DNA of 64,000 bases from Bythopirellula sp. (GCA_965216565.1 OZ244170.1:2048001-2112000); one strand, 5' to 3'; shown: positions 26,235 to 42,692, numbered from the stretch's first letter. Numbers and translations are program-made. The notes: a model not told the origin generated them from the sequence alone.

Positions 26235-27272
26235 CTACTCCGCCGCATATTTGTCATATTCTTTAGCTATCTGTGCCTGTTTCTCATCCCCTCGGTGCAA
26301 GATCATTCGATAGCGAAACTGCAAAGAATCGTTTCCAGGAACAGTCAATCGAAGTGGACGCTTAGTGACGTCGCTATCGGGATCAGTGAAAGCCTCTTTC
26401 CCGAATGGGTTCGATGCGAAGAGACCATAGGTTCGCACGTGCCAACGTGGTTTGGGATCGAAACTATTCGGATGGCACAGAATTGCAATGCCGACTGTCT
26501 CGCCGTCCACGGGCCCATGGTAGTCGACCCACTCAGCTCGCTGTGCCCAAGCGTCGACATCGGTCTTGCCGGTACTGGTGATGATCTCCCCGCCCAGTTC
26601 GGCATCGACACGCATAGTCGGAGCTACTCGCACAGCAAAGAGTCCTTCTTTGCTATCTCCAATCCGCAAGGGGCCTGCCGAAGCCTTTAGTTCGACATGG
26701 CAGTCAATCCAGCGGAGCTCACTGGTACAGCCAAACCGAAACGTACGAGTATCGGAACACACGAGTTCGCCTGTTTTGCTCATCCAATCGTTCTTCGCCA
26801 CGATCGTAACACCATTGGAGTCTGACTTGACTTCGCTGAATTCACGATGCTTCACGGTTCCTATTGGAAAAGGACGAGTCTCATCTTTCTCTGGCTCGTG
26901 CCAATAGTCGTTGCCATTGAGCCCCTCGTAGCCAAACCACATCGATCGATGATGCAAATGGTCTTTTTCTTCTTGATCACTACCCTTGCCGACAGGGTAG
27001 GCTCTCGTCATCCGCTTACCCGTTGGGCCTACGAGAGGCCATAGCACCGGCCGAGTGCCAGAGAGAATGTGATAACGGGTGAACAGCTCATCGTCGATCA
27101 GGACGTTGACGCCGTGCGAATCTTCGGTGCAGGAGAACTTCGGAGTGGCCGCGGTCGCCACGGACACGCCAAAGACTGTTGCGAATAGAAGCACAATCGC
27201 CAGCAAATGCCTTATCGAACACGATAGTTGACTTGGAGAATGGCCTGGGTACTCGATCCGAGTTGGGTTCAC
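26235..27272 (-). CDS. DUF6807 ('PmoA-like') secreted protein
   Basis: RPVLWPLVGPTGKRMTRAYP, DHLHHRSMWF, WHVRTYGLFASNPFG. Confidence 0.8.
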   Translation of the reverse strand: MNPTRIEYPGHSPSQLSCSIRHLLAIVLLFATVFGVSVATAATPKFSCTEDSHGVNVLIDDELFTRYHILSGTRPVLWPLVGPTGKRMTRAYPVGKGSDQEEKDHLHHRSMWFGYEGLNGNDYWHEPEKDETRPFPIGTVKHREFSEVKSDSNGVTIVAKNDWMSKTGELVCSDTRTFRFGCTSELRWIDCHVELKASAGPLRIGDSKEGLFAVRVAPTMRVDAELGGEIITSTGKTDVDAWAQRAEWVDYHGPVDGETVGIAILCHPNSFDPKPRWHVRTYGLFASNPFGKEAFTDPDSDVTKRPLRLTVPGNDSLQFRYRMILHRGDEKQAQIAKEYDKYAAE

Positions 27273-28672
27273 AATTCTAATCCTAAGTAGTCGCGGGCGT
27301 TGCTAAAACAGATCCTACGCACCAAGCTGCCGACTAGTCCGAAATCATTCGGCAAAACTCCGTTCTCGAGCTCCGTACCCAACATGTTGCAGAGGCAACG
27401 TCGGAAGTATTCGTGTCTTGGGTAGGACATGAACGACCGAGAGTCGGTAAGCATTCCAACAAATGTAGACAACAGTCCAAGATTCGAGAGTGCATTCAGC
27501 TGCCAACGAATCCCTTCTTCTTGATCTAAGAACCACCAACCACTTCCAAACTGAACTTTGCCAGCAACTTCGTCGGTTTGATAGTTCCCTGCCATGGTGG
27601 CAAAGAGGTAATTTTCTCTCGGATTGAGGTTGTAGAGAATTGTTTTTGGCAGAGCCCCTTCGGCATCCAAGGCACCTAGGTACTTGGATAAACGCTGCCC
27701 CTGAGGCCAGTCGCCTATCGAGTCGTACCCAATGTCGCGTCCCACAGCGGCGAGCATTCGAGGGTTGTTGTTTCTTAAGGCACCCAGATGCAACTGCTTG
27801 GTCCAGCCCTTTTCAGCATCCCACCGCCCGAAGTGCATCATTAAGTTGCTGGCGTACTGCTCATGTTTTTGAGGATCGATCTCACCACCACGAAGTGCCT
27901 GATCGAAGATTTCACCAGCGACGTTGTCAGCACAGAAATCGGCATAGCAGTATTCCAGACCATGATCCGATAGACGGCAACCAATTTCGTGGAATGCGTC
28001 GTGGCGCTTTCTTAATGCGGTCAGGAGATCCTGGTAGGAATTGACCTCGACATCACTCACGCCTTGCAGTTTGGCAAGCCATGCCTGGAACTCTTGAGGC
28101 TCTGTGATTCTGAGTGCCGCGTCGGGACGAAACGTGGGATAGATTTTCGTCGAGAGGCCACTCTCGGCGATCGCCTTGTGTTCCGACAAATCATCAGCGG
28201 GGTCATCCGTGGTGCAGACACAGCGAACCTGGAACTTATCCAAAATTCCGTGGGCGGTGAACTCGTCCTTTTGCAACAAGCTATTGGCGTGCTTCCAGAT
28301 TTCTGGCGCGGAACTTTCGTTGAGGAGTTCATCGATGCCGAAGTATCGCTTCAATTCCAAATGCGTCCAATGGTAGAGCGGATTACGAAGCGTATTGGGA
28401 ACTGTCCCTGCCCAAGCCACAAATTTGTCGTACGGAGATGCATCGCCAGTGCAAAAACTCTCCGCCACGCCATTGGCACGCATGGCTCGCCACTTGTAAT
28501 GGTCCCCCTCAAGCCAGATTTCAAACAGATCGTTGAACCGACGATTCGAGGCTACGTCCTGCGGCGGCAAGTGGGTGTGATAGTCTAAGATCTGCTCGTC
28601 CTCGGCGTACTCGTGATAGAGTCGCTGAGCAGCCTTGGATTGCAGCAAGAAATCGTCGTGAATATAGGTCAT
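27269..28672 (-). CDS. uxaC: Glucuronate (uronate) isomerase
   Basis: DYHTHL, WLEGDHYKWRAMR, NPLYHWTHLELKRYF, GSGWWF, GMLTDSRSFMSYPRHEYFRR. Confidence 0.97.
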   Translation of the reverse strand: MTYIHDDFLLQSKAAQRLYHEYAEDEQILDYHTHLPPQDVASNRRFNDLFEIWLEGDHYKWRAMRANGVAESFCTGDASPYDKFVAWAGTVPNTLRNPLYHWTHLELKRYFGIDELLNESSAPEIWKHANSLLQKDEFTAHGILDKFQVRCVCTTDDPADDLSEHKAIAESGLSTKIYPTFRPDAALRITEPQEFQAWLAKLQGVSDVEVNSYQDLLTALRKRHDAFHEIGCRLSDHGLEYCYADFCADNVAGEIFDQALRGGEIDPQKHEQYASNLMMHFGRWDAEKGWTKQLHLGALRNNNPRMLAAVGRDIGYDSIGDWPQGQRLSKYLGALDAEGALPKTILYNLNPRENYLFATMAGNYQTDEVAGKVQFGSGWWFLDQEEGIRWQLNALSNLGLLSTFVGMLTDSRSFMSYPRHEYFRRCLCNMLGTELENGVLPNDFGLVGSLVRRICFSNARDYLGLEL

Positions 28673-29180
28673 AGCAATGAAGTAATTGGGGGAGAAATTA
28701 AACGCACTCCAAGGAATGCTAACTTAACATTCAGCAAGTGAATGGTGTGTTGAAAATATTGTGTACAGCTGGGCTCAGAGCGAAAGGGAAGAATCTCGCG
28801 TTCGATTCAGATTTCTTAGAAAACGCTCCTTGAGGTCGCGATTTGCGGTCGCTTTTCTGCAATCTACAAAAATAGACCAACCGCTAAGTATTTAGTTGTA
28901 AGAGACACGTGAGGCCTTCCCACGATACATAGAGCCATTTATTCCTGCGATAATCTCTCTGACTAGGCGAATCCCGGGAAAGCAGTATCAGTTCACTAGG
29001 ATTTGAAACCAGCAGAAGCCGATCACCCCGAAGTTACGTCGCGCGCACGCGGAACTCCGAAGGTCACGCAAGTTACCGAGATCTGAAGCATGCCACTGAG
29101 TCTTCCGTTAAGTGCTGGGAGCCTACTCTCTTCGCGGCACAGGCTTAGCCGCTTTCCCTTAAGCAAACTCCGCACCGGGC

Positions 29181-30992
29181 TTAGCCGCGAAAATATAAAT
29201 ACGCGGCCACAATGGCTACCAGCAAAGCGACCGATGCAAACACGTCCAGCCCGCTCCAGCTCTGCCTTGTTTCTTGCTTATGCTCTTCTGTCACCGTGCC
29301 ATAGGTTAGTCCGCTGATCTGATCGTAGTCGGGTTCGCTCGTGAGATAGCTAACCACGATCATCGCTGCGGAACTAACCAGAAAGATCAGCAGGCTGTAG
29401 TATTGAAAATAGATCTTGTTGACGACCCAGAAAAAAGAGCCAACATCGTAATAGGAGCTGTCATCGAAATACTTGGGTAGCGTGTCGACGGCAAGTCGAA
29501 ACACACCCATAGCGAATCCCACGATCAAGGCCGCCAAACATCCCTTGGCATTGAGCCGCTTCCAGAAGATGCCGAGGAAGAAAACGACAAATATCGGGGG
29601 AGCCAAGTAACCCTGCACCGACTGCAGGTAATCGTACAGCCCTCGCGACCCCTTAATCACTGGAATCCACGCCAGACCAATCAGTACCATCACGATCGTG
29701 GCTCGGCGGCCAACTCTCACAAGCTGATGCTCCGAGGCACCTGGCTTGAACTTACTATAGAGATCCATCGTGAACAGGGTCGAGCATGCGTTGAACACGC
29801 CGGCGAGCGAACTCATTAACGCAGACAGCAAACCAGCCACGACAATACCGCGGACGCCGGTGGGCAATACGTTTTTCACCATCATCGGAAAGGCCTTGCC
29901 GCTTTCGGCGATCTTCGGCTGACCATTCTCGGTACCACTTAACATCTCGCTGAAATCCATCGCGGCCAGCGTTGCATTGGCCTCAGTCGCCCCAGGGTCA
30001 CTGGTCTTTAGGATCAATCCCCAGCAGATCATCCCTGGAATGATAAAGATAAACACAGGCAGCAGCTTGAGAATTCCGGCAAAGATACTGCCGCGACGGG
30101 CCTCAGTTTCGTTTGGAGCACCCAGTGCTCGTTGCACGATATATTGGTCGGTGCACCAGTACCAGAGCCCAATGATTGGTGCGCAGAACAGCATCCCTAG
30201 CCAAGGATAGTGCCCTGGAAATTCAAAATACCAAGCCTTCTTCACCACGTCGCCAGCATCATTCGCCACTTCCACAGGAGACCAAACGCCTTCGATGCCT
30301 GTGGGCACTAGAGGCTTCCAAAGATTGAACTTGTCGTCGCCAATGGTTTCCTTCAGTTCCCCCCAACCACCGATCGCTTCCAATCCGTAGTAGGTGACCA
30401 GCGCGGAGCCGACAATCAGAATTACAGTTTGTACGGCTTCGGTGTAGGCGACGGCCCGAAATCCTCCCAACGTTGTGTAGACGCCGGTAATGAGCAGCAC
30501 CAAAATCGATCCAATCCAAAAGCTATCCAGTCGGCCAATTTGCATCTCGGGCAGCAACACCGAAAATACGATTCCACCAGCAAATATGCCAACCGCAATC
30601 TTTGTGACGACGTAAGCCACCAGTGAAATGATGGAAAGTACGTATCGAGCCGCGGGGGAAAACCGGCGCTCGAGGAACTCGGGCATCGTAAACACGCCAG
30701 AACGAGCATAGAATGGCACCATCACCCAGCCAAGGACTAGCAGGCACCAGGCATGCAGTTCGTAGTGAGCCATGGCCACACCGTCCGAAGTGCCAGAACC
30801 AGCCAGTCCAACCAAGTGCTCGGAACCAATGTTCGAGGCGAATATCGATGCCCCTACGATGAACCAGCCTAGAGAATGCCCCGCCAGAAAATAGTCAGCC
30901 GAGGTGTCCTTATTCTTCAGAACCACCCACCAGGTAATGCCCAGCAGCAATACAAAGTAGGCTGCGATGATTCCCCAATCGAGTGGCTGCAT
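29181..30992 (-). CDS. Sodium:solute symporter (SGLT-like, sugar)
   Basis: YFLAG, ASNIGSEHLVGLAG, TMPEFLERRF, WYWCTDQYIVQRAL, ALMSSL. Confidence 0.92.
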   Translation of the reverse strand: MQPLDWGIIAAYFVLLLGITWWVVLKNKDTSADYFLAGHSLGWFIVGASIFASNIGSEHLVGLAGSGTSDGVAMAHYELHAWCLLVLGWVMVPFYARSGVFTMPEFLERRFSPAARYVLSIISLVAYVVTKIAVGIFAGGIVFSVLLPEMQIGRLDSFWIGSILVLLITGVYTTLGGFRAVAYTEAVQTVILIVGSALVTYYGLEAIGGWGELKETIGDDKFNLWKPLVPTGIEGVWSPVEVANDAGDVVKKAWYFEFPGHYPWLGMLFCAPIIGLWYWCTDQYIVQRALGAPNETEARRGSIFAGILKLLPVFIFIIPGMICWGLILKTSDPGATEANATLAAMDFSEMLSGTENGQPKIAESGKAFPMMVKNVLPTGVRGIVVAGLLSALMSSLAGVFNACSTLFTMDLYSKFKPGASEHQLVRVGRRATIVMVLIGLAWIPVIKGSRGLYDYLQSVQGYLAPPIFVVFFLGIFWKRLNAKGCLAALIVGFAMGVFRLAVDTLPKYFDDSSYYDVGSFFWVVNKIYFQYYSLLIFLVSSAAMIVVSYLTSEPDYDQISGLTYGTVTEEHKQETRQSWSGLDVFASVALLVAIVAAYLYFRG

Positions 30993-31183
30993 GTAGATTC
31001 CTATAAATAGGGTGGCGAGACAGAACACAAATCAGCGAAGAGTTTTGAATTCTTCACTCGACCAGTTCAACCACTATAGCCCATGTTGATGCTGAAATCA
31101 TGCAGGTTCGTTGCTGTTCAACCAAGATTTATTCCACGAATTCTACGTGGCGAAACCACGAACAAGACAACACAAATCGAACC

Positions 31184-32494
31184 CTAATGGGAATCCACAA
31201 CGCTCGTGACGAGCGGTTTATATCGATCGATAAAATCAGCTAATGTCTCACGCGCCTGCGTTAGATGCTCGTCCGTTAAGGGCAACGAAAGGAACAGATC
31301 GCCACGGCTGCAGACAAGCATGCCAGATAGCAGCAATTCCATATGCAGCAGCGCGTTCATCACTTGACATTCCGCACTTCTGATCACCATGTGCTGGAGC
31401 GGTTCGCGGGTAAAGTGAATCGCAAACATCGAGCCGAGCCCATTGCAGAACATCGGTACCTTCTTCTCGACAAACATACTATTCAGCGATTGGCGAAACG
31501 CCTCAGACCATTCGAAGAATTCTGCTGCGCGCTCGGGAGTGAATACCCTACCTAGAGCGGAAATCCCAGCAGCCATGGAGCAGACATTATTGTTGAAAGT
31601 GCCCGCATGTTTCCAAGTACCGGCTTGCTTGGGATTGTAGCACGCCATGATCTCTGCTTTGCCGCCGAATGCACCCGTCGGCAGCCCGCCACCAATGATC
31701 TTGCCTAGCATGGTCAGATCAGGCTCAATGCCTAGCATCCCCTGAACCCCCGCCGGGCCGAGGCGTGCAGTTTTGACTTCGTCAAATATCAGCAGGGCCC
31801 CCACGTCGCGAGTGGACTGCCGGAGCATCGCTAGAAACTCCGGAGAACCTGGTATGCTTCCGCCTGCACCTAAAATGGGCTCGACAATCACTGCTGCCAA
31901 TGCGTCACCCGTCTGCCGAATTGCCTCCGCCGTGCCCGCGGTGTCATTGTAATCTGCCAAGATATAATCGAATGGAACGTTAAATTCGGAAGGTCCGGTC
32001 GGAAACTTCACGACGCCTCCATGATAAGCTCCATGGAAGGCGAGAATTTTGTTTCGACCAGTCACCATTCGCGCCGTCGTCAGCGCCATGATGCCAGCTT
32101 CGGTTCCTGAATTGCAGAATCGCAATTGTTCCACCGAGGGAAAACGCTCGCAGATTAAACCCGCCAGCTCCCTTTCCAGCTCAGTCGGGGCGCCCATCAC
32201 GATGCCCCTCTCCAATGCCTGTTGAACCGCCGACTTGATGGCTTGGTCCGAATGGCCAAACAGGCCGGCAGAAAACTCACCGACGAAGTCGACGTACCGA
32301 TGCCCATCCAAGTCGACCAGCTCTGCCCCTTCGCCTCGAACCATGGTCAAGGGAAAAGGTTCGTAATGCAACACATTGCGTGTATTTCCCCCGGGCAAGT
32401 AGCGCTGGGCCTCTTCGTCGGCTGCCATGCTCTGCGGATTGGCTGCCGCGTAGCGGTTACGTGCATCACTTAGTGCTTGTTGTAATGCTTCCAT
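31184..32494 (-). CDS. Class III PLP aminotransferase of the beta-amino-acid (beta-phenylalanine-type) transaminase group
   Basis: LPGGNTRNVLHYEPFPLT, QLRFCNSGTEA, YHGG, NVPFD, FDEVKTARL, LGKIIGGG (PLP Lys), HAGTFNNN, SRG...LSLPLT. Start ATG 32494. Confidence 0.85.
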   Translation of the reverse strand: MEALQQALSDARNRYAAANPQSMAADEEAQRYLPGGNTRNVLHYEPFPLTMVRGEGAELVDLDGHRYVDFVGEFSAGLFGHSDQAIKSAVQQALERGIVMGAPTELERELAGLICERFPSVEQLRFCNSGTEAGIMALTTARMVTGRNKILAFHGAYHGGVVKFPTGPSEFNVPFDYILADYNDTAGTAEAIRQTGDALAAVIVEPILGAGGSIPGSPEFLAMLRQSTRDVGALLIFDEVKTARLGPAGVQGMLGIEPDLTMLGKIIGGGLPTGAFGGKAEIMACYNPKQAGTWKHAGTFNNNVCSMAAGISALGRVFTPERAAEFFEWSEAFRQSLNSMFVEKKVPMFCNGLGSMFAIHFTREPLQHMVIRSAECQVMNALLHMELLLSGMLVCSRGDLFLSLPLTDEHLTQARETLADFIDRYKPLVTSVVDSH

Positions 32495-32502
32495 AACTAG
32501 CG

Positions 32503-33705
32503 CTACCCGACCTTCTCGATCGCCAGCGCAATTCCCTGGCCAACACCAACGCACATTGTGCAGAGGGCTCGTTTGCCTTCCCCGCGACGTAATTGATCGA
32601 ATGCGGTCAGTGCCAGTCGGGCACCGCTCATACCCAAGGGATGGCCCAAGGCGATAGCTCCGCCGCGAGTATTGAGTCGGGAATCGTCATCCGCTAGCCC
32701 TAGCTCTCTAGTACAGGCTAAAGCCTGCGCCGCAAATGCTTCGTTGAGTTCTAAGATATCGAAGCTATCCAACGTAACGCCTAACCGCTCGAGCAACTTG
32801 TTCGTTGCGGGAACGGGACCAATGCCCATAATTCGCGGAGGCACACCGGCTACAGACATTCCAAGCACGCGAGCCACGGGTTCGAGTTGGTGACGCTTAG
32901 CCCCAACTTCGGATGCCAGGAGCAATGCTGCGGCGCCGTCGTTGATGCCCGACGCATTTCCTGCGGTCACAGTGCCCTCTGGAAGAATTGGCTTCAGTTT
33001 GGCGAGTTTCTCGAGTGTTACTTCACGTGGATGCTCGTCCCGATCAACGAGGATCGGATCTTGCTTACGTCGCGGAACACTCACGGCGCAGATCTCACCA
33101 GCAAGTCGGCCGTCTTGCTGAGCAGTGGCGGCTTTGGTTTGACTCCAAATCGCAAACTGGTCTTGATCCTCGCGGCTGATGGAGCGTTCTCTGGCGAGGT
33201 TTTCAGCCGTTTCCGGCATCGATTCTGTGCCGTACTGCTCCTGCAGATTAGAGTTAATAAATCTCCATCCCATCGTGGTATCAAACATTTCCTGCTGTCG
33301 TCCAAAGGCCGCCTCCGGTTTGCCGATGACAAAAGGAGATCGAGACATACTCTCCACACCGCCGGCAATCATGAGATCGCCTTCTCCCGACTGGATTGCC
33401 GAAGCGCAGTTGCCCAAAGCGTTGAGCCCCGATGCACAGAGGCGATTGATTGTGTAGGCTGGCACTTCTTGCGGCACGCCGGCTAACAAACTGCTCATAC
33501 GCGCAACATTGCGATTGTCTTCCCCCGACTGATTGGTGCAGCCCAGCACAACATCGTCTAGCTCATGCCAGTCGACGCTAGGGTTTCGCTCCATCAGCGA
33601 CTTAATCGGTATCGCTGCCAGATCGTCGGTTCGAATCGTTGACAAACATCCTCCGTAACGCCCCACAGGTGTCCGGATTCCATCGCATAGGTAGACTTCA
33701 GTCAT
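32503..33705 (-). CDS. pcaF: 3-oxoadipyl-CoA thiolase (PcaF/PaaJ type)
   Basis: RTPVGRYGG, GEDNRNVARM, INRLCASG, SMPETAEN, NEAFAAQ, GHPLGMSGAR, CVGVGQG. Confidence 0.9.
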   Translation of the reverse strand: MTEVYLCDGIRTPVGRYGGCLSTIRTDDLAAIPIKSLMERNPSVDWHELDDVVLGCTNQSGEDNRNVARMSSLLAGVPQEVPAYTINRLCASGLNALGNCASAIQSGEGDLMIAGGVESMSRSPFVIGKPEAAFGRQQEMFDTTMGWRFINSNLQEQYGTESMPETAENLARERSISREDQDQFAIWSQTKAATAQQDGRLAGEICAVSVPRRKQDPILVDRDEHPREVTLEKLAKLKPILPEGTVTAGNASGINDGAAALLLASEVGAKRHQLEPVARVLGMSVAGVPPRIMGIGPVPATNKLLERLGVTLDSFDILELNEAFAAQALACTRELGLADDDSRLNTRGGAIALGHPLGMSGARLALTAFDQLRRGEGKRALCTMCVGVGQGIALAIEKVG

Positions 33706-33745
33706 GATTCTGTTCTCATTGTTACTGCGGCACGCTCACGAGTAG

Positions 33746-34405
33746 CTAATTTGCAGGCAACTGGTTTGCGGGTAATATCGCTGTCCCCGTTTTCTGCTCG
33801 ACCTCTGCAAACCTAATTCCGGGCGCCAATTCGGCAACTTGAAAACCCTCAGGAGTAATATCAACCACCGCCAAATCGGTGTAAACACGAGATATTACAC
33901 CCACGCCCGTCAGTGGATAGGAGCACTGTTTCACCAGTTTAGGTTCGCCAGTTTTGGTCGTGTGTTGGGTGAGTACGTAGATGTTTTTCACACCCTGCAC
34001 CAGATCCATCGCGCCGCCAACTGCAGGGATGGCATCGGGAGCCCCGGTGGACCAATTCGCAATATCTCCATGGGCTGACACTTGCATAGTGCCTAACACA
34101 CAGACATCAATATGACCGCCTCGGATCATGCTGAAACTGTCGGCATGATGAAAATACGCCGCTCCAGGCACGGCTGTCACGTACTTCTTCCCAGCATTCA
34201 TCAGGTCGAGATCGATTTTGTCCTCGGCCGGCGCGGGTCCCATGCCTAGCAAACCATTTTCGGTGTGATACATGAATTCACGACCCGCAGGCACAAATTT
34301 GGTGACCAGCTCTGGTATGCCGATGCCTAAATTGACGTACGATCCGTCGGGAATGTCCTGGGCCACTCGTGCCGCCATCTGCTCCCTTGTCCAACCATTA
34401 CTCAT
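33746..34405 (-). CDS. pcaJ: 3-oxoacid (3-oxoadipate) CoA-transferase subunit B
   Basis: YVNLGIGIP, HTENG (catalytic Glu), HHADSFSMIRGGH, DAIPAVGGAMDL; ATGA overlap with subunit A stop. Confidence 0.88.
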   Translation of the reverse strand: MSNGWTREQMAARVAQDIPDGSYVNLGIGIPELVTKFVPAGREFMYHTENGLLGMGPAPAEDKIDLDLMNAGKKYVTAVPGAAYFHHADSFSMIRGGHIDVCVLGTMQVSAHGDIANWSTGAPDAIPAVGGAMDLVQGVKNIYVLTQHTTKTGEPKLVKQCSYPLTGVGVISRVYTDLAVVDITPEGFQVAELAPGIRFAEVEQKTGTAILPANQLPAN

Positions 34406-35112
34406 GGGTAACTCTTGCCCTCCGCAATCAGCGTGTCTTCGTGAATAGGCTGAGAAACTTCTACAACGCGATTGACAAAAATCCCAGGAGTGACGACGCA
34501 CTCGGGATCGATTTCTCCCCGTTCGACTAAATTTCTTGTCTGAACGATCGTGGTTGTAGCTGCCATGCACATCAGTGGGCTAAAGTTGCGGGCAGTTTTA
34601 TTGTAGGTCAAGTTGCCGAGGGGATCGGCACACTCACTCTTGATCAATGCAAAGTCTGCTTTCAACCACGGCTCTAACACATACGTCCGACCATCAAACT
34701 CACGTTGCTCTTTGCCCTCCGCCAGGACCGTACCCACAGTAGTAGGAGTATAGAAGGCAGGTATTCCCGCGCCGGCCGAACGAATGCGTTCCGCCAGGGT
34801 GCCTTGAGGAACCAGGTCGAGTTCTATCTTTCCTTCTCGAAATAGCTTGGGAAAAACACGCGATTGACTCGATCTAGGAAAAGAGCAAATCATCTTTCTC
34901 ACCTGTCCATTGCCAATCAGGGCAGCCAGGCCTACTTCGCCGTTGCCCGTGTTGTTGTTGATCAAAGTCAGATCCTTCGCACCTTGATCAATGAGCGCAT
35001 GGATCAATTCGATCGGACTACCCGATGCACCGAAACCGCCAACCATTACGGTTGCACCGTCAGGGATATCGGCCACGGCTTCCGCCACGGATGGGCATGT
35101 TTTGTTGATCAC
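34402..35112 (-). CDS. pcaI: 3-oxoacid (3-oxoadipate) CoA-transferase subunit A
   Basis: GTG-INK start; GGFGASGSPIELIHALID, CSFPRS, PQGTLAERIR, TARNF, VTPGIFV. Confidence 0.88.
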   Translation of the reverse strand: MINKTCPSVAEAVADIPDGATVMVGGFGASGSPIELIHALIDQGAKDLTLINNNTGNGEVGLAALIGNGQVRKMICSFPRSSQSRVFPKLFREGKIELDLVPQGTLAERIRSAGAGIPAFYTPTTVGTVLAEGKEQREFDGRTYVLEPWLKADFALIKSECADPLGNLTYNKTARNFSPLMCMAATTTIVQTRNLVERGEIDPECVVTPGIFVNRVVEVSQPIHEDTLIAEGKSYP

Positions 35113-35153
35113 CTGCAATCTCTCCGGCAAGCTATGAGATTTTGAAAAGCCAC

Positions 35154-35987
35154 CTATCGAAAAACGTCCGTCGATTCCCAAAGTTCTTCAATTCGGTCGA
35201 TACGCTCAGTCGCTTCCTCCTTCAACTCTTTGGCAATCTTTGACACAAGCAACTCGGCGATCGCCACTACGGGGACGGAACTATCAAACGGCCCGATAGC
35301 CGGCACTGAAATTTCGCACCAAATATCTGCCAATTCGACAAGAGGAGACAGCGGGCCATCGGTAATCGCAACTATCTCTACTCCATTATCGGCTAGCAGT
35401 TCGGTTGCCGTCACGACTAACCGCCGATAGCGGAAAAAGTCGAACACAACGGCGACATCTTTCGGGCCTGCATTCCCAATTTCGCTACCAAGGGAACGGT
35501 CATCCAACATTTGCACGCCTGGCCGAACCATCGATAGTCCGCTCTTAAATGCAATCGCGCCGGCTTGCGACGTCTCGCCAGACAGGATCCAAACATTCTT
35601 TGCACGCACTATCGACCGGACGAGTTTTGTTATTTTTTGTCTCTGAATTGCATCAAAAACAGAGTCGATCGCGCCATCTATCGTCTCGCGAACTGACAGA
35701 TCTGGTTTTTCGTCGCCCCGAATCCTTTCACTAGGACGAGCCAGACGACGCGACACATCGCTGCGGACCAACCGCTGTAATTGTGTGAAACCTTCGAAGC
35801 CCAGTTTGTTGGCAAAACGTACTACCGAAGGTCGACTCGTGCCGATGCGAGTTGCCAGATCTGACACCGTTCCAAAAGCGAGCAACATCGGCTCGGCGAG
35901 CACTGTCTCTGCAATACGTCGGTCGGTGGGCGTAAATTGCCCTCCTGCCGCAACTACCAGATCGGTTAGTGGAGAATTTTCCCTCAT
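35154..35987 (-). CDS. RpiR/MurR family regulator (HTH + SIS)
   Basis: TVSDLATRIGTSRPSVVRFANKLGFEGF; FFRY; AITDGPLSP. Confidence 0.9.
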   Translation of the reverse strand: MRENSPLTDLVVAAGGQFTPTDRRIAETVLAEPMLLAFGTVSDLATRIGTSRPSVVRFANKLGFEGFTQLQRLVRSDVSRRLARPSERIRGDEKPDLSVRETIDGAIDSVFDAIQRQKITKLVRSIVRAKNVWILSGETSQAGAIAFKSGLSMVRPGVQMLDDRSLGSEIGNAGPKDVAVVFDFFRYRRLVVTATELLADNGVEIVAITDGPLSPLVELADIWCEISVPAIGPFDSSVPVVAIAELLVSKIAKELKEEATERIDRIEELWESTDVFR

Positions 35988-35988
35988 G

Positions 35989-36036
35989 CTGTTCACTATG
36001 TTACACAGTTGTACCACTCTGTTCAACCTGTTACAC
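35989..36036. promoter_or_regulatory. Two 18-bp direct repeats in the divergent promoter; candidate RpiR operators
   Basis: CTGTTCActaTGTTACAC (35989) and CTGTTCAaccTGTTACAC (36019), 30 bp apart. Confidence 0.5.
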
Positions 36037-36091
36037 TGGCTATTCGGAAGCGAAGTATAGGTTGAATGAAGAAAACATAGCGAGGTAACCC

Positions 36092-37555
36092 GTGGCTAAC
36101 GATGACACATATGAGATGACAGACCGTCAGCAGGAATTTCTGGATTCAATTGATAGTCCGAAATACGAGCGAGAGATCATCAACGGCCTGAAGCCTTTTT
36201 TTGAAGAGAAGGCTCCGGAAGATATTAGAAACTTCTATTCCTCTGAGGAACTTGAGTCGTTGCGCGTCATTACCGACACCGAACGCGACGTGGAAACGCG
36301 GATGCCGGTGAAGGTTACCCGGCACTATTTCGAGTTGGCCAGAAACAGCCTGCCGCTGCAACGACTTGTGAAAGCCAGCCCGGACGAAACACTCAATCTG
36401 GAAGGGTCAGAAGATCCCGGTTATCAAATGGACTTCTCTCCGGTCGAGGGAATGTTGCACAAGTACGAGATGGGCTTGCTCTATACGGTCTCCACATGCT
36501 CGGCACATTGTCGTTTTTGTTACCGCGAAGAGCTGATCGGAAACAAAGAAGTAGAACGCCAAGATGGTTCGGTCGCCAGAAAAGGCATCGCTAAGATCAA
36601 AGACGTGACGGACTATATCCGCACACACAACGCCATGGTTGATTCCAATGGTGGAGTTCACCCAACGACAGGCCGCGAGAAACTTCGCGAAGTACTACTC
36701 TCGGGTGGCGATGCCATGATGCTTCCCAATAAGAAGATTGGTGAATGGCTGGCTGCCCTGGCAGAAGCAGGCGTGGAATCAATCCGCCTCGGCACGAAGG
36801 ACATGGCCTTCTACCCCAAACGCTTCGACAGCACCTTTTTGGCGATGATGGATAGTTTTCACGAAAAGTATCCAGACGTCGGATTCCGGTTGATGATTCA
36901 CTTTAATCATCCTGACGAATTCTTACTCAAAACGCCTGATGGCGAATATGCCACCAATCCAAATGGCACTCTCAAATGGCACGAAGACACGAAGCAGGCC
37001 ATGGAAGGCGTTGTCTCCCGCGGTTGGCTTAACGTCGAAAACCAAGCGCCGATCATCAAGGGCATCAATGACAATGTGGAAGCACTAAGGCTCATGCAAC
37101 GTGCCTTGTACCGATGTGGAATCAACAATCATTACTTTTTCTGTGGTAGAGATATCGTTGCTTACCGCGCCTTCAATGTCCCCATCGAAACCGCCTGGAC
37201 TCTTCTCAACGAATCCCAAAAAGGCTTGTCCGGCGTCGAAGCCCACGCGCGTCTCTCGATCACTCACTACAAGGGAAAAACCGAGGTTGCCGCGGTGACT
37301 AATGAACCGATGTCGGGAGTCCCTGGGGCAGAAAACGGCGTGCTAATTTTCAAGATTCTTCGCAACGCGTTGGATGCTCCAGACCGCGGCAAAGTATGCA
37401 TCGTGGGCCGCAACCCCGAAGCGATCTGGTTCGACGATTATGAAGACCGAGTGCTCTTTGACGAAGCCGGCTTGTACGAGTATTCGCGAGTCGACAAGAA
37501 GAAAGTCGAGATCAAGCAAACCGCAGATCTCGATACTGCGCTGAGCCAGAAGTAG
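36092..37555 (+). CDS. KamA-family radical SAM protein (amino-acid 2,3-aminomutase-like)
   Basis: LHKY, CSAHCRFCYR (CxxxCxxC), EVLLSGGD, RLGT, HFNHP, NQAPIIKGIND, LSG...HYKGK (probable PLP Lys), WFDD. Confidence 0.88.
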   Translation: MANDDTYEMTDRQQEFLDSIDSPKYEREIINGLKPFFEEKAPEDIRNFYSSEELESLRVITDTERDVETRMPVKVTRHYFELARNSLPLQRLVKASPDETLNLEGSEDPGYQMDFSPVEGMLHKYEMGLLYTVSTCSAHCRFCYREELIGNKEVERQDGSVARKGIAKIKDVTDYIRTHNAMVDSNGGVHPTTGREKLREVLLSGGDAMMLPNKKIGEWLAALAEAGVESIRLGTKDMAFYPKRFDSTFLAMMDSFHEKYPDVGFRLMIHFNHPDEFLLKTPDGEYATNPNGTLKWHEDTKQAMEGVVSRGWLNVENQAPIIKGINDNVEALRLMQRALYRCGINNHYFFCGRDIVAYRAFNVPIETAWTLLNESQKGLSGVEAHARLSITHYKGKTEVAAVTNEPMSGVPGAENGVLIFKILRNALDAPDRGKVCIVGRNPEAIWFDDYEDRVLFDEAGLYEYSRVDKKKVEIKQTADLDTALSQK

Positions 37556-37569
37556 AAATAACACGCGGC

Positions 37570-37878
37570 AATGAAACGAATTCTTCGGCGGTTGGCTGCT
37601 CAGACTGTGAGTCGTGGCTTTGCTACGAGTGTGCAGCAACTTGCTCGAGTTGTGGAGAAGGACACTGCCATCAGTGCCTTCGATCCTGTGGCCGCTGCGA
37701 GGAACCGTTTTGCGCGAAGTGCCTTAAAACCTGCTCAGGCTGTCTGGAGCAAGTCTGTAACTGTTGTTTCATCTCAGACGAAAGGTGTGGTGATTGTTAT
37801 GAAGAAAATCAAGAGTCAACCAAATCCGTCTCTACGGTTCTCTCCCACCGCCTGGGCCAAGCTGCAATATCTCCATGA
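37570..37878 (+). pseudogene. Startless Cys-rich (CxxC-repeat) gene fragment, absent from the ORF track
   Basis: Frame 1 reads CSDCESWLCYECAATCSSCGEGHCHQCLRSCGRCEEPFCAKCLKTCSGC...CGDC; no start codon between the KamA-like stop and the Cys-rich segment. Confidence 0.65.
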
Positions 37879-38044
37879 TGCAGGGGATACCGAACTCTGA
37901 GATTTCGGGATCGCCAGTGCCGAGGATCTCTTGTTGATCGAGGATGTGGTGCTCGTTGACCAGCGGTGCAGTGTGGTGGAAGTTGAACTAGTGGACTCGG
38001 TCGTGACAGATGCAATGCTGCGCCTTGTTCCAGCAAATAGATAG
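37799..38044 (+). pseudogene. Truncated planctomycete JAB/MPN-like gene with in-frame TGA
   Basis: [45 protein letters not shown]; ends before any HxH motif. Confidence 0.55.
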
Positions 38045-38389: not shown

Positions 38390-39796
38390 CTAAGGAGAGG
38401 CCACCAACAATTTGCGGTGCTTGAGCGGATACCAATCAGCGATTCGCTTCGACAATCGTTCCACAATCTCGGGGTGTTGATCTGCAAGGTTCGACAGCTC
38501 GTTTGGATCAGCTTCCAAATCGAACAGCTGCGGACCTTTGATCGTGCGTGGATGGCTACTACGATAGCGATGTGCCTCGCCGTCATAAGTCAGCAGGAGC
38601 TTCCACTTGCCCTCGATGCACCAGCGATAGAGGAGCGAAGCCTCGGGGTCTTCGATGTCAGCGATGTCGTGGGCAAATCCCTCGCCGAAGATTGCGTCGC
38701 GGCCGATGGGATCCCCCCCGGTTAGAGATTGCCAAAGGTCGAGTCCTGGCAGATCCTCAGGCTGTCGCGCACCAGCGGCGCTCAGGATTGTGGGAACCAG
38801 GTCAATGCTACTGACTAGTTCGGATCGATCGGCTGGCTTCAGTTTGCCCGGCCAGGAAAACAAGATTGGCGTTCGCACGCCACCTTCATAGGGCGATTGC
38901 TTCGATCGGGCTGCGTAGCTGTCTTTATCGGGATGTTGAATCCAACCGTTGTCCGTAACGTAGACAATCAGAGTATTTTCGCGCAAACCCTTCTGGTCGA
39001 TCATTCCAATCAACTGCCCACAGGTTTCGTTAAACCAATCGCACATCGCGTAGTACTTAGCAACTGTGATTGGCCGGCTTTCGGTGCGATATTTGTCCAG
39101 AATTCTTTCCGGCGGATTGTGTGGAGTATGAGGTAGAAACGGTGCGTACCAAAGGAAGAATGGTTTTTCCTCTGCCTGGGCCATATCGACGAACTCTTCA
39201 ATCGGCTCCATGCCATGGCGTCCAATCTTCAGGCCGTCGTCTCCGTGTCGCCCGCCCGGCTTGGGGAAACCGCGCGTCATGCCATGTGTAAAGCCAGCAC
39301 GCTTGTAATTGCCTTCCCAATACTTACCGCTTTGGTGAGACAAATACCCCTGTTCGGCGAGCAGTTCCGGCAACGTATCGAACCGATCGATGTATGAGAT
39401 GAGTTGAGCACACCGCTGCTTATACAAATCGGAACCCTTCTCCGCATACTTCGGCGAAGGGTCGTTGCCGGTCACACCATGCTTGGACGCGTAGTGGCCG
39501 GTGAGTAGCGTTACCAAAGAAGGACGGCACAATGCAGTCGGTACATAGCCGCGTTTGAACACCACGCTATCACGGGCCAATTGATCCAGATGGGGTGTTT
39601 GAATATCAGGATGCCCCATAAAGCCATAGTCGGTCCAACTTTGATCATCCGAGATGATCAGCACAATGTTGGGCCGATCGGCTGCCAGAACATCGTTACT
39701 CGCTGCGCCCATTAGTGAGCCGACGAGGACGAGCAGCAATTGAGCTGCCGGTGAAACTTTGGGCATTTGCATACTTGGTGATTTTTTTAGGGACAA
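38390..39796 (-). CDS. Sulfatase S1 family (CRPSL variant)
   Basis: RPNIVLIISDD, TPHLD, LCRPSLVTLLTG, PHTP, TDNG, EGGVRTP, LFDLEADPNE. Confidence 0.9.
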   Translation of the reverse strand: MSLKKSPSMQMPKVSPAAQLLLVLVGSLMGAASNDVLAADRPNIVLIISDDQSWTDYGFMGHPDIQTPHLDQLARDSVVFKRGYVPTALCRPSLVTLLTGHYASKHGVTGNDPSPKYAEKGSDLYKQRCAQLISYIDRFDTLPELLAEQGYLSHQSGKYWEGNYKRAGFTHGMTRGFPKPGGRHGDDGLKIGRHGMEPIEEFVDMAQAEEKPFFLWYAPFLPHTPHNPPERILDKYRTESRPITVAKYYAMCDWFNETCGQLIGMIDQKGLRENTLIVYVTDNGWIQHPDKDSYAARSKQSPYEGGVRTPILFSWPGKLKPADRSELVSSIDLVPTILSAAGARQPEDLPGLDLWQSLTGGDPIGRDAIFGEGFAHDIADIEDPEASLLYRWCIEGKWKLLLTYDGEAHRYRSSHPRTIKGPQLFDLEADPNELSNLADQHPEIVERLSKRIADWYPLKHRKLLVASP

Positions 39797-41877: not shown

Positions 41878-41972
41878 TCCTGTTAGTTCACTGTTTTGAA
41901 CCACAGAAATTTCAAATTGTTTGTCATGTTTTTTGATCTAACCTTTTACCACTTTTCTTGAGGAGAAGACTA

Positions 41973-42692
41973 ATGATTTTGAGAGGATTAATTGTAACGT
42001 GTTTAGCGTTAGGCTTGCACGCCAACTGTTCGGCGGCCCTGATCGTGGCTTTTGATCAGGTTCGAAGTTCGAACGGCACTGATCCATTGAACTACGTAGT
42101 GCAAGACAGCGTCGACGTGATCACCACGCGCAGTGGCACCAACTCCTCCGGCGGTTCTGCTACTCCAGGCGTCAACAAAGAAGGCTCTACTGATGGCACA
42201 ATTGGTAGCGTCGCCGCTGCTGGCGTGAGTACTGATACAACAATAAACGGTGAGTCATGGCGTTGGACAAACGGCGCACAGACTGCCAATTTCGACTTCG
42301 ATTTCACTGATACCAGTGGTGCGGCCAGAACTGTATCAACATTCCATTTCGATGGTGGAACGAATCGTCCGAATGTAGCACAGGACTGGGAATTGTTTCA
42401 CGTCACAGGCGGAGGTGATGTTAGCCTCGGCACTGGAACGATTCCTCTTGTTTCTGGCGGCGCACTCCCAGAATACACAGACTTCGACGTTGCTTTGGGA
42501 GGCTTGACGTTACCTGCTAATGGTACGCTCAGCCTGAGTCTTCGCTTCACGAGGGATGATACAAACTCAGGCGTCAGCGGCCATCACGGTTACATCGATA
42601 ACATCGGACTCAGTGTTGTTCCAGAACCAAGCAGCTTGGCTCTGTTGACAATGATGTCCGTCGTCGCGCTCGGCAGAAAACGCCGTTCGTAA
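41973..42692 (+). CDS. PEP-CTERM protein with one copy of the same domain
   Basis: FHFDGGTNRPN, GHHGYIDNI; AGGAG before ATG; VPEP...RKRRS. Confidence 0.9.
   Translation: MILRGLIVTCLALGLHANCSAALIVAFDQVRSSNGTDPLNYVVQDSVDVITTRSGTNSSGGSATPGVNKEGSTDGTIGSVAAAGVSTDTTINGESWRWTNGAQTANFDFDFTDTSGAARTVSTFHFDGGTNRPNVAQDWELFHVTGGGDVSLGTGTIPLVSGGALPEYTDFDVALGGLTLPANGTLSLSLRFTRDDTNSGVSGHHGYIDNIGLSVVPEPSSLALLTMMSVVALGRKRRS

Follow-up and report, generated by a model that had tools for sequence, protein, structure and literature searches.

L-2-Aminoadipate is formed by L-piperideine-6-carboxylate (P6C) dehydrogenase. In its known catabolism it is transaminated to 2-oxoadipate, which is then converted by HglS, a 2-oxoadipate dioxygenase/decarboxylase, or oxidatively decarboxylated to glutaryl-coenzyme A (CoA). 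Clostridial lysine fermentation employs lysine 2,3-aminomutase (KamA), KamDE, Kdd, Kce, and an acyl-CoA beta-transaminase. A 64,000-nucleotide stretch of the genome of Bythopirellula sp. (GCA_965216565.1 OZ244170.1:2048001-2112000; hereafter the window, meaning this whole stretch) contains a gene cluster at positions 31184-37555, in which a KamA-like radical S-adenosylmethionine (SAM) protein is combined with a beta-transaminase and with PcaI, PcaJ, and PcaF, the enzymes of the lower beta-ketoadipate pathway. On comparative-genomic evidence, the cluster probably encodes the conversion of 2-aminoadipate to 3-aminoadipate, then to 3-oxoadipate, and finally to succinyl-CoA and acetyl-CoA. The module is very likely a beta-amino-acid catabolic route led by an aminomutase. 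The complete, oxygen-independent route from 2-aminoadipate to PcaIJF that was proposed in an initial annotation of the window gains in silico support from the conservation of the module, its neighbours in other genomes, gene co-occurrence, and the predicted active site.

An open reading frame (ORF) listing, together with NCBIfam and Pfam scans, showed that rpiR-pcaI-pcaJ-pcaF-aminotransferase form a run on the minus strand (31184-35987), and that the KamA-like radical-SAM gene (36092-37555, plus strand) diverges from rpiR. The two divergent genes are separated by 104 bp, in agreement with the tight run and the spacing of about 100 bp described in the initial annotation. The intergenic gaps are 41 bp (rpiR/pcaI), 0 bp (pcaI/pcaJ), 40 bp (pcaJ/pcaF), and 8 bp (pcaF/aminotransferase); the probable pcaJ start, ATG 34405, abuts the pcaI stop. 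The features of the module are as follows.

36092-37555, plus strand: KamA-like radical-SAM/pyridoxal phosphate (PLP) aminomutase of 487 amino acids (aa) with a CSAHCRFC motif; predicted L-2-aminoadipate 2,3-aminomutase.
35988-36091, no strand: divergent control region of 104 bp with a direct repeat, a candidate RpiR operator.
35154-35987, minus strand (ORF to 36026; probable start ATG 35987): regulator of the RpiR/MurR family, with PF01418 (HTH_6) and PF01380 (SIS).
34402-35112, minus strand (ORF to 35181; probable start GTG 35112): 3-oxoacid CoA-transferase subunit A, PcaI-type (TIGR02429).
33746-34405, minus strand (ORF to 34570; probable start ATG 34405): 3-oxoacid CoA-transferase subunit B, PcaJ-type (TIGR02428).
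32503-33705, minus strand: 3-oxoadipyl-CoA thiolase PcaF (TIGR02430 and PRK09050).
31184-32494, minus strand (ORF to 32554; probable start ATG 32494): class-III beta-transaminase of the PDB 4AO9 type, predicted 3-aminoadipate:2-oxo-acid transaminase.

The thiolase scored 659.1 bits against the pcaF equivalog TIGR02430 (cut-off 597) and 677.4 bits against PRK09050 (cut-off 605), and the corresponding thiolase of Wocania also exceeded the TIGR02430 cut-off (650.7 bits). The CoA-transferase subunits A and B reached 356.4 bits with TIGR02429 (cut-off 128.5) and 296.2 bits with TIGR02428 (cut-off 243.55), respectively, which places the pair in the two-subunit type of family I. These models cover PcaIJ and ScoAB jointly, and the best solved relatives of the pair are succinyl-CoA:3-ketoacid (acetoacetate-type) CoA-transferases. 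The single pointer to 3-oxoadipate, rather than acetoacetate, as the predicted substrate of PcaIJ is its link to the PcaF-type thiolase. The transaminase contains an LGKIIGGG PLP-lysine motif, and its best solved relatives over the full length are 4AO9 (E 1.3e-122), 6IZ9 (7.6e-121), and 2YKU (2.2e-120), far ahead of its best glutamate-1-semialdehyde aminomutase match (2e-74). As annotated initially, the enzyme is of the beta-phenylalanine-aminotransferase type; its activity on 3-aminoadipate is a prediction.

The CSAHCRFC motif of the KamA-like protein (C136, C140, and C143) matches the motif of lysine 2,3-aminomutase and EpmB. It was invariant in an alignment of 17 sequences, comprising the window protein and sixteen loci chosen for diversity from 80 related loci, with a mean column identity of 75%. 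The aminomutase match of a gammaproteobacterial metagenome-assembled genome (L077:9001-10395) was left out of the alignment; it has two stops in its tblastn range, which may reflect a frameshift, a pseudogene, or an alignment gap. All KamA models matched the window protein weakly (73-86 bits, against cut-offs of 199-650): it scored 85.7 bits with TIGR00238 (cut-off 199.2), 72.6 bits with the lysine 2,3-aminomutase model TIGR03820 (cut-off 525.4), and 83 bits with the glutamate 2,3-aminomutase equivalog TIGR04368 (cut-off 650). No Pfam family matched it at E 1e-5. The profile of the 17 sequences retrieved a sole match from the PDB, the lysine 2,3-aminomutase structure 2A5H (E 4.4e-17). An AlphaFold2 model (predicted local distance difference test, pLDDT, 73.5) also had 2A5H as its top Foldseek match (E 1.3e-12, TM 0.64 on the target, 427 columns, 19-20% identity), and this fold match covers nearly the whole 2A5H chain; the next matches were other radical-SAM enzymes at E 3.5e-4 or worse. 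The window protein is about 70 residues longer than 2A5H, with inserts after the Fe-S motif and at residues 278-300, and a different C-terminal part. These comparisons place it on a deep KamA branch of its own.

The active site was mapped onto 2A5H through the EpmB of the same genome (439 bits, cut-off 369), which aligns with 2A5H residues 27-340 and matches the profile of the KamA-like family at Prob 99.3 in hhalign. In the chained map, R145 corresponds to R134, R353 to D293, S389 to D330, and K396 to K337, and all four window residues are invariant in the 17 aligned sequences. We take R134 of 2A5H to bind the carboxylate, D293 and D330 to bind the epsilon-amino group, and K337 to bind PLP. 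In glutamate 2,3-aminomutase, Lys and Asn occupy the two aspartate sites. The roles in the lysine enzyme and the Lys/Asn pair of the glutamate enzyme were reportedly described by Lepore et al. in 2005 and by Ruzicka and Frey in 2007. Lysine 2,3-aminomutase and EpmB both have aligned counterparts of the Fe-S motif, the carboxylate arginine, the PLP lysine, and the GGD and NQ..GxND motifs. A phmmer search of the PDB with residues 300-430 alone returned no match. The catalytic apparatus of a 2,3-aminomutase is thus kept, and the side-chain pocket has changed from acidic to basic and polar, a change that speaks for an acidic or polar substrate instead of lysine.

Protein search identified more than 2000 homologues of the KamA-like protein at E 1e-10 or better. 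The best 120 of these are 75-84% identical to it, and the named ones belong to Woeseiaceae, Chromatiales, Lysobacterales, and a Bythopirellula. One genome per species was scanned, which gave 157 relatives, and the best 80 loci were kept, with aminomutases of 59-79% identity. These loci come from Gammaproteobacteria, Acidobacteriota, Planctomycetota, Gemmatimonadota, Actinomycetota, Bacteroidota, Alphaproteobacteria (Mesorhizobium), and others. Neighbours within 6 kb of the aminomutase gene were counted by tblastn with the window proteins and a second transaminase type. The pcaI gene was found in 68/80 loci, pcaJ in 65/80, a class-III transaminase in 63/80, and the thiolase in 47/80; pcaI, pcaJ, and the transaminase were present together in 59/80. 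The RpiR regulator occupies the same position in 26/80. Contig ends truncate many of the loci. When the count was limited to the 38 loci that have 5.5 kb or more of sequence on each side, the transaminase was present in 37, pcaIJ in 35, and the thiolase in 29, and the three without pcaIJ are all from Mesorhizobium. Recurrence in most of the 80 loci puts this arrangement far outside what chance would produce. Co-localisation of this KamA subgroup with a class-III transaminase and pcaIJ(F) in other genomes, by which the initial annotation proposed to check its reading, thus holds across phyla. Clustering of the 978 ORFs of the 80 loci revealed no further generally recurrent gene; antisense shadow ORFs, which arose from crude ORF calling, were ignored.

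The transaminase slot, filled in 63 loci, holds the window type in 23 and a second class-III clade of about 31% identity in 40. The second clade is glutamate-1-semialdehyde-aminomutase-like, with 6K8H and ForI as its best PDB matches. Since two clades of 31% identity share the same slot, selection acts on function. Three layouts were observed: the divergent arrangement of the window with RpiR; a co-directional kamA-pcaI-pcaJ-transaminase order with the thiolase on the opposite strand, in Phycisphaerales and others; and a kamA-ferredoxin-transaminase order in Mesorhizobium. The latter two use the second transaminase clade. A gene for the ferredoxin FdxA lies directly 3' of kamA in 5 loci, which fits the cluster-reduction need of a radical-SAM enzyme in aerobes; the FdxA homologue of the window organism is encoded far off, at C1:102785-103060. 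The patchy distribution of the module, together with 59-84% identity over at least eight phyla, suggests horizontal spread.

Lysine and 2-aminoadipate genes adjoin the module in several lineages. In Wocania arenilitoris (L054), of the Flavobacteriaceae, kamA-fdxA-pcaI-pcaJ-transaminase-pcaF-P6C dehydrogenase run in one direction, and the P6C dehydrogenase scored 817 bits against NF050084 (cut-off 730). In two loci of Woeseiaceae type (L075 and L006), a saccharopine-dehydrogenase gene (PF03435 and PF16653) adjoins the transaminase gene. In a planctomycetotal genome (G338), the module and the P6C dehydrogenase gene point towards each other across 225 bp. In three Mesorhizobium species, kamA-fdxA-transaminase lies near genes for saccharopine dehydrogenase, HglS (729 bits, cut-off 550), and P6C dehydrogenase (807-811 bits). 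On the same contig of M. australafricanum, a few kb further on and past an IS66 element, two CoA-transferase genes and the gene for PcaF (702 bits) lie in divergent orientation to pcaR. A search of Mesorhizobium with the window PcaI gave no match at E 1e-30; the CoA-transferase of the pcaR-pcaIJF set is a different subtype, and was found through the PcaF family search. As a side observation, an IS66 transposase and TnpB are located between pcaR-pcaIJF and the P6C dehydrogenase/HglS/aminomutase region (L093:11866-14202, Mesorhizobium G017:C2), which hints at recent rearrangement or mobility of this region. The module neighbours, which in four lineages encode P6C dehydrogenase, saccharopine dehydrogenase, or HglS, favour 2-aminoadipate over glutamate as the predicted substrate.

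The genome of the window organism was available as a single contig of 5.21 Mb, with a marker-based completeness of 94%. It has a single pcaIJ pair, and the window pcaI is the only copy by tblastn. The upper aromatic genes searched for all remained under cut-off in this genome (pcaD, 145 bits against 256; pcaH, 102 against 296; catA, 48 against 392; pcaB, 119 against 356), and no pcaC match was found; pcaG, catB, and catC were not searched for. Therefore, the only PcaIJF set of this organism is without an aromatic feed. The initial observation that ring-cleavage and lactone genes are absent from the window thus extends to the genome for pcaB, pcaC, pcaD, pcaH, and catA. Ring-cleavage genes elsewhere that might serve pcaIJF, which had been named as a finding contrary to the proposal, were looked for among these same genes, with none over cut-off. 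On this ground the aromatic beta-ketoadipate pathway was rejected as an explanation of the cluster. A family search for HglS was also negative in this genome. At C1:1095293-1100948 (L085:5293-10948), 1 Mb from the window, a cluster encodes a DAO-family amine oxidase (424 bits against the N-methyltryptophan-oxidase model, cut-off 257), a saccharopine-dehydrogenase-like protein, and a P6C dehydrogenase (788 bits, cut-off 730). It is likely a pipecolate or saccharopine route to 2-aminoadipate, and the organism can therefore be expected to make this compound. A 468-aa ORF without an assigned family is also present inside the cluster, on the opposite strand.

The co-occurrence of the module with P6C dehydrogenase was analysed at two levels. 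Whole genomes were searched for 50 of the 80 carriers, mostly those with longer loci, and three of these were already known to be positive. P6C dehydrogenase was found at 478 bits or more in 48/50 and over the cut-off in 35/50, and no match was found in two (G011 and G023). The weaker matches are cut by contig ends or split, and matches at the level of paralogues reach at most 295 bits. In a sample of 301 genomes of the same phylum, each at least 85% complete, the aminomutase gene was present in 8, including the window genome, and in none of the other sampled genomes of the same order or class. P6C dehydrogenase was present in 126 of the 301 genomes, that is, in 8/8 carriers and 118/293 non-carriers. 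The hypergeometric probability of this co-occurrence is 8e-4, or 5e-3 when the six families are counted once each, with the reservation that kin are not independent.

Gene identities, conservation, genomic links, and active-site substitutions form the basis from which we infer the substrate, product, step order, and regulation of the pathway. L-2-Aminoadipate would enter from lysine via saccharopine or pipecolate and piperideine-6-carboxylate. The KamA-like radical-SAM/PLP enzyme would shift the amino group from C2 to C3 to give 3-aminoadipate, presumably with a reduced [4Fe-4S] cluster, SAM, and PLP, as in lysine 2,3-aminomutase. R353 and S389, which replace the lysine-binding aspartates, could bind the distal carboxylate. 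The beta-transaminase would convert 3-aminoadipate to 3-oxoadipate, PcaIJ would move CoA from succinyl-CoA onto 3-oxoadipate, and PcaF would split 3-oxoadipyl-CoA into succinyl-CoA and acetyl-CoA. In sum, all six carbons would be retained, with neither decarboxylation nor oxygen. RpiR probably governs both divergent promoters through a repeat in the 104-bp spacer: a direct repeat, CTGTTCAnnnTGTTACAC, occurs at 35989-36006 and 36019-36036, 30 bp from start to start, and may be the RpiR operator. Two short inverted repeats are also present in this spacer.

Several points weigh against the 2-aminoadipate pathway. Its predicted substrate is drawn from genomic context, and lysine/2-aminoadipate genes were found in the fetched flank of only 6/80 loci and 1/4 extra loci, in four lineages. 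P6C dehydrogenase is widespread in this phylum in any case (42% of the sampled genomes), so that its co-occurrence is a necessary condition and not proof. HglS is not complementary to the module: it was found in 7/301 genomes and in 2/8 carriers, and Mesorhizobium has both. The thiolase of a locus of Phycisphaerales type (L031) scored 552.6 bits against TIGR02430, just under the cut-off of 597, yet this was its best-scoring model. The AlphaFold2 model is poor at the Fe-S loop, with pLDDT below 50 at residues 109-152. A direct profile search also pairs R353 with D293, but weakly (7.3 bits), and the positions equivalent to D330 and K337 were obtained only by the chained alignment through EpmB. 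The residue roles that underlie the predicted active site are taken over from lysine 2,3-aminomutase, and the Arg and Ser pocket would equally suit glutamate or another acidic or polar side chain. Regulators of the RpiR/SIS family usually sense sugar phosphates.

The alternative that survives best, unlikely as it is, keeps the same metabolites in a CoA-first order: the CoA-transferase would activate 3-aminoadipate, and the transaminase would then turn 3-aminoadipyl-CoA into 3-oxoadipyl-CoA. The acyl-CoA beta-transaminase of lysine fermentation is a parallel to this order, and with a CoA ester no free beta-keto acid would arise. The gene content would be identical to that of the favoured pathway, and nothing in the window decides the order. 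However, the solved transaminases most closely related to the window enzyme use beta-amino acids in free form. In addition, the Mesorhizobium aminomutase-ferredoxin-transaminase set has no CoA-transferase of its own and lies near the PcaR-regulated pcaIJF, which fits a hand-over of free 3-oxoadipate; PcaR senses beta-ketoadipate.

It is improbable that the true substrate is another acidic or polar amino acid, such as 2-aminopimelate, a sulfonated, phosphorylated, or amide-bearing amino acid, or N-acyl-lysine, which would yield acetyl-CoA and a different acyl-CoA. The sequence does not reveal the specificity, the family shares about 20% identity with lysine 2,3-aminomutase, and the specific KamA models all remain at 73-86 bits. 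However, both the PcaF equivalog match and the genes found repeatedly beside the module, those for P6C dehydrogenase, saccharopine dehydrogenase, and HglS, speak for a C6 dicarboxylate derived from lysine, and no gene for any other precursor recurs in the loci of the relatives. Glutamate is a quite improbable substrate. In this case, beta-glutamate would be converted to 3-oxoglutarate and then to malonyl-CoA and acetyl-CoA, or 3-oxoglutarate would be decarboxylated to acetoacetate, giving acetoacetyl-CoA and two acetyl-CoA. The arginine at the D293 position suits any acidic side chain, the CoA-transferase models cannot split PcaIJ from ScoAB, and the solved relatives are of the acetoacetate type. 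Glutamate 2,3-aminomutases also occur in bacteria and archaea, as reportedly described by Ruzicka and Frey in 2007 and by Tunckanat et al. in 2022. The 83 bits against the glutamate 2,3-aminomutase equivalog, far from its cut-off of 650, speak against glutamate, as does a thiolase over the cut-off of the 3-oxoadipyl-CoA thiolase equivalog. Furthermore, the neighbours in four lineages are lysine/2-aminoadipate genes and not glutamate genes, and Mesorhizobium couples the module with PcaR-pcaIJF.

It is very improbable that the radical-SAM protein catalyses something other than a 2,3-amino shift, within a different pathway logic. The score below the KamA family cut-off, the 70 or so extra residues with their inserts, and the different C-terminal part would be in keeping with this; on the other side stand the aligned Fe-S, carboxylate-arginine, GGD, NQ..GxND, and PLP-lysine features, the fold match over nearly the whole 2A5H chain, and the beta-transaminase partner, which is what the product of an aminomutase requires. 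A lysine 2,3-aminomutase that feeds beta-lysine breakdown via 3-oxo-6-aminohexanoate is hardly credible and was rejected, even though some source databases call relatives "L-lysine 2,3-aminomutase", because both lysine-binding aspartates are lost (R353 and S389), TIGR03820 gave 72.6 bits against a cut-off of 525, the genome holds a separate EpmB and another KamA-like gene, and no gene recurs for the 4-aminobutyryl-CoA that cleavage would leave.

Two genes next to the module are doubtful members of it.

37571-37900, plus strand: ORF of 109 aa, 3' of the aminomutase gene; module membership doubtful.
29181-31028, minus strand: sodium:solute symporter (PF00474 and TIGR00813), 156 bp downstream of the transaminase gene; module membership doubtful.

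The 109-aa ORF had no Pfam or NCBIfam family and no tblastn match in the 80 related loci. Its product is basic, and Mesorhizobium and Wocania have the 107-aa 7Fe ferredoxin FdxA at the equivalent position. The symporter was beside the module in 0/80 relatives. A promoter and terminator scan placed no terminator in the 156-bp gap between the symporter and transaminase genes; its counts were near those of shuffled sequences (10 versus 8.0; 15 versus 9.7), and gave no help on the operon limits. Downstream of the transaminase gene, the minus strand (26235-31028) encodes the symporter, the glucuronate isomerase UxaC (27269-28672), and a DUF6807 protein (26235-27272). These three genes are not co-conserved with the module and resemble an independent unit for uronate use. 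On the other side, a sulfatase gene (38390-39796, minus strand) has about 30 paralogues genome-wide by tblastn, and a protein encoded at 41958-42692 has a weak, below-cut-off PEP-CTERM match.

The literature searched, which covered few subscription journals, yielded no report of an aminomutase acting on 2-aminoadipate, of 3-aminoadipate breakdown, or of an amino acid feeding the beta-ketoadipate pathway. This agrees with the initial annotation, which knew of no described 2-aminoadipate 2,3-aminomutase or entry of this kind. The available part of a proposal for adipate production uses lysine 2,3-aminomutase only (PMC7241714), and the available part of a preprint presents a synthetic beta-glutamate cycle (bioRxiv 10.1101/2025.11.21.689712). 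The enzyme types are known, and the substrate, metabolite, and pathway combination appear to be new. On balance, we consider that this protein may well be the first 2-aminoadipate 2,3-aminomutase and the representative of a new deep KamA branch. It would open a branch of lysine catabolism that has spread horizontally, needs no oxygen, and conserves all carbon, with a second, amino-acid-fed role for PcaIJF in at least eight phyla, including aerobes with a dedicated ferredoxin. For many bacteria, the fate of 2-aminoadipate beyond the saccharopine, pipecolate, and P6C steps has been little mapped, as seen in the phylum of the window organism, where P6C dehydrogenase occurs in 126/301 genomes and HglS in 7/301. 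If the pathway is correct, it would add a new reaction (2-aminoadipate 2,3-aminomutase), a new natural metabolite (3-aminoadipate), and a new entry to the lower beta-ketoadipate pathway. A route without carbon loss or need for oxygen would suit bacteria of sediments and fresh water, among which the module is common. The enzyme would be of interest for the making of beta-amino dicarboxylates and for adipate-related biocatalysis, and many database labels of "lysine 2,3-aminomutase" would be corrected.

The proposed system shares features with several known systems. Like lysine 2,3-aminomutase KamA (Clostridium subterminale, 2A5H), the window protein has the radical-SAM/PLP fold, the CxxxCxxC motif, and the equivalents of R134 (R145) and K337 (K396). 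However, it is only 19-20% identical to 2A5H and about 70 residues longer, with Arg in place of D293 and Ser in place of D330. Lysine 2,3-aminomutases are known from lysine fermentation or from the context of the osmolyte acetyl-beta-lysine, whereas the window gene sits with PcaIJF. Glutamate 2,3-aminomutase resembles it as a KamA-family enzyme with non-acidic residues in place of the lysine-binding aspartates, and the predicted substrate of the window protein is likewise acidic. The replacements are Lys and Asn in the glutamate enzyme and Arg and Ser in the window protein, and the genomic context is lysine/2-aminoadipate genes rather than glutamate fermentation or osmolytes. The transaminase is closest to the solved beta-phenylalanine/beta-transaminases of Variovorax paradoxus (4AO9) and Mesorhizobium (2YKU) and to 6IZ9; its predicted substrate, in contrast, is an aliphatic beta-amino dicarboxylate.

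At the pathway level, the CoA-transferase pair and the thiolase pass the same models as those of the lower beta-ketoadipate pathway, and the predicted products are likewise succinyl-CoA and acetyl-CoA. In contrast to the aromatic beta-ketoadipate pathway, 3-oxoadipate would derive from an amino acid and not from protocatechuate or catechol, and the regulator is RpiR and not PcaR/IclR. Clostridial lysine fermentation also has a radical-SAM 2,3-aminomutase first and beta-keto and CoA chemistry later. However, it starts from lysine itself and uses a B12-dependent 5,6-aminomutase and a cleavage enzyme, and neither of these genes recurs in the loci of the relatives. The known catabolism of 2-aminoadipate shares with the proposed route its entry metabolite and its upstream genes, those for saccharopine and P6C dehydrogenases. 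The proposed route differs from it in that it would require neither an oxygenase nor a decarboxylation and would keep all six carbons, in an organism whose own genome is without HglS.

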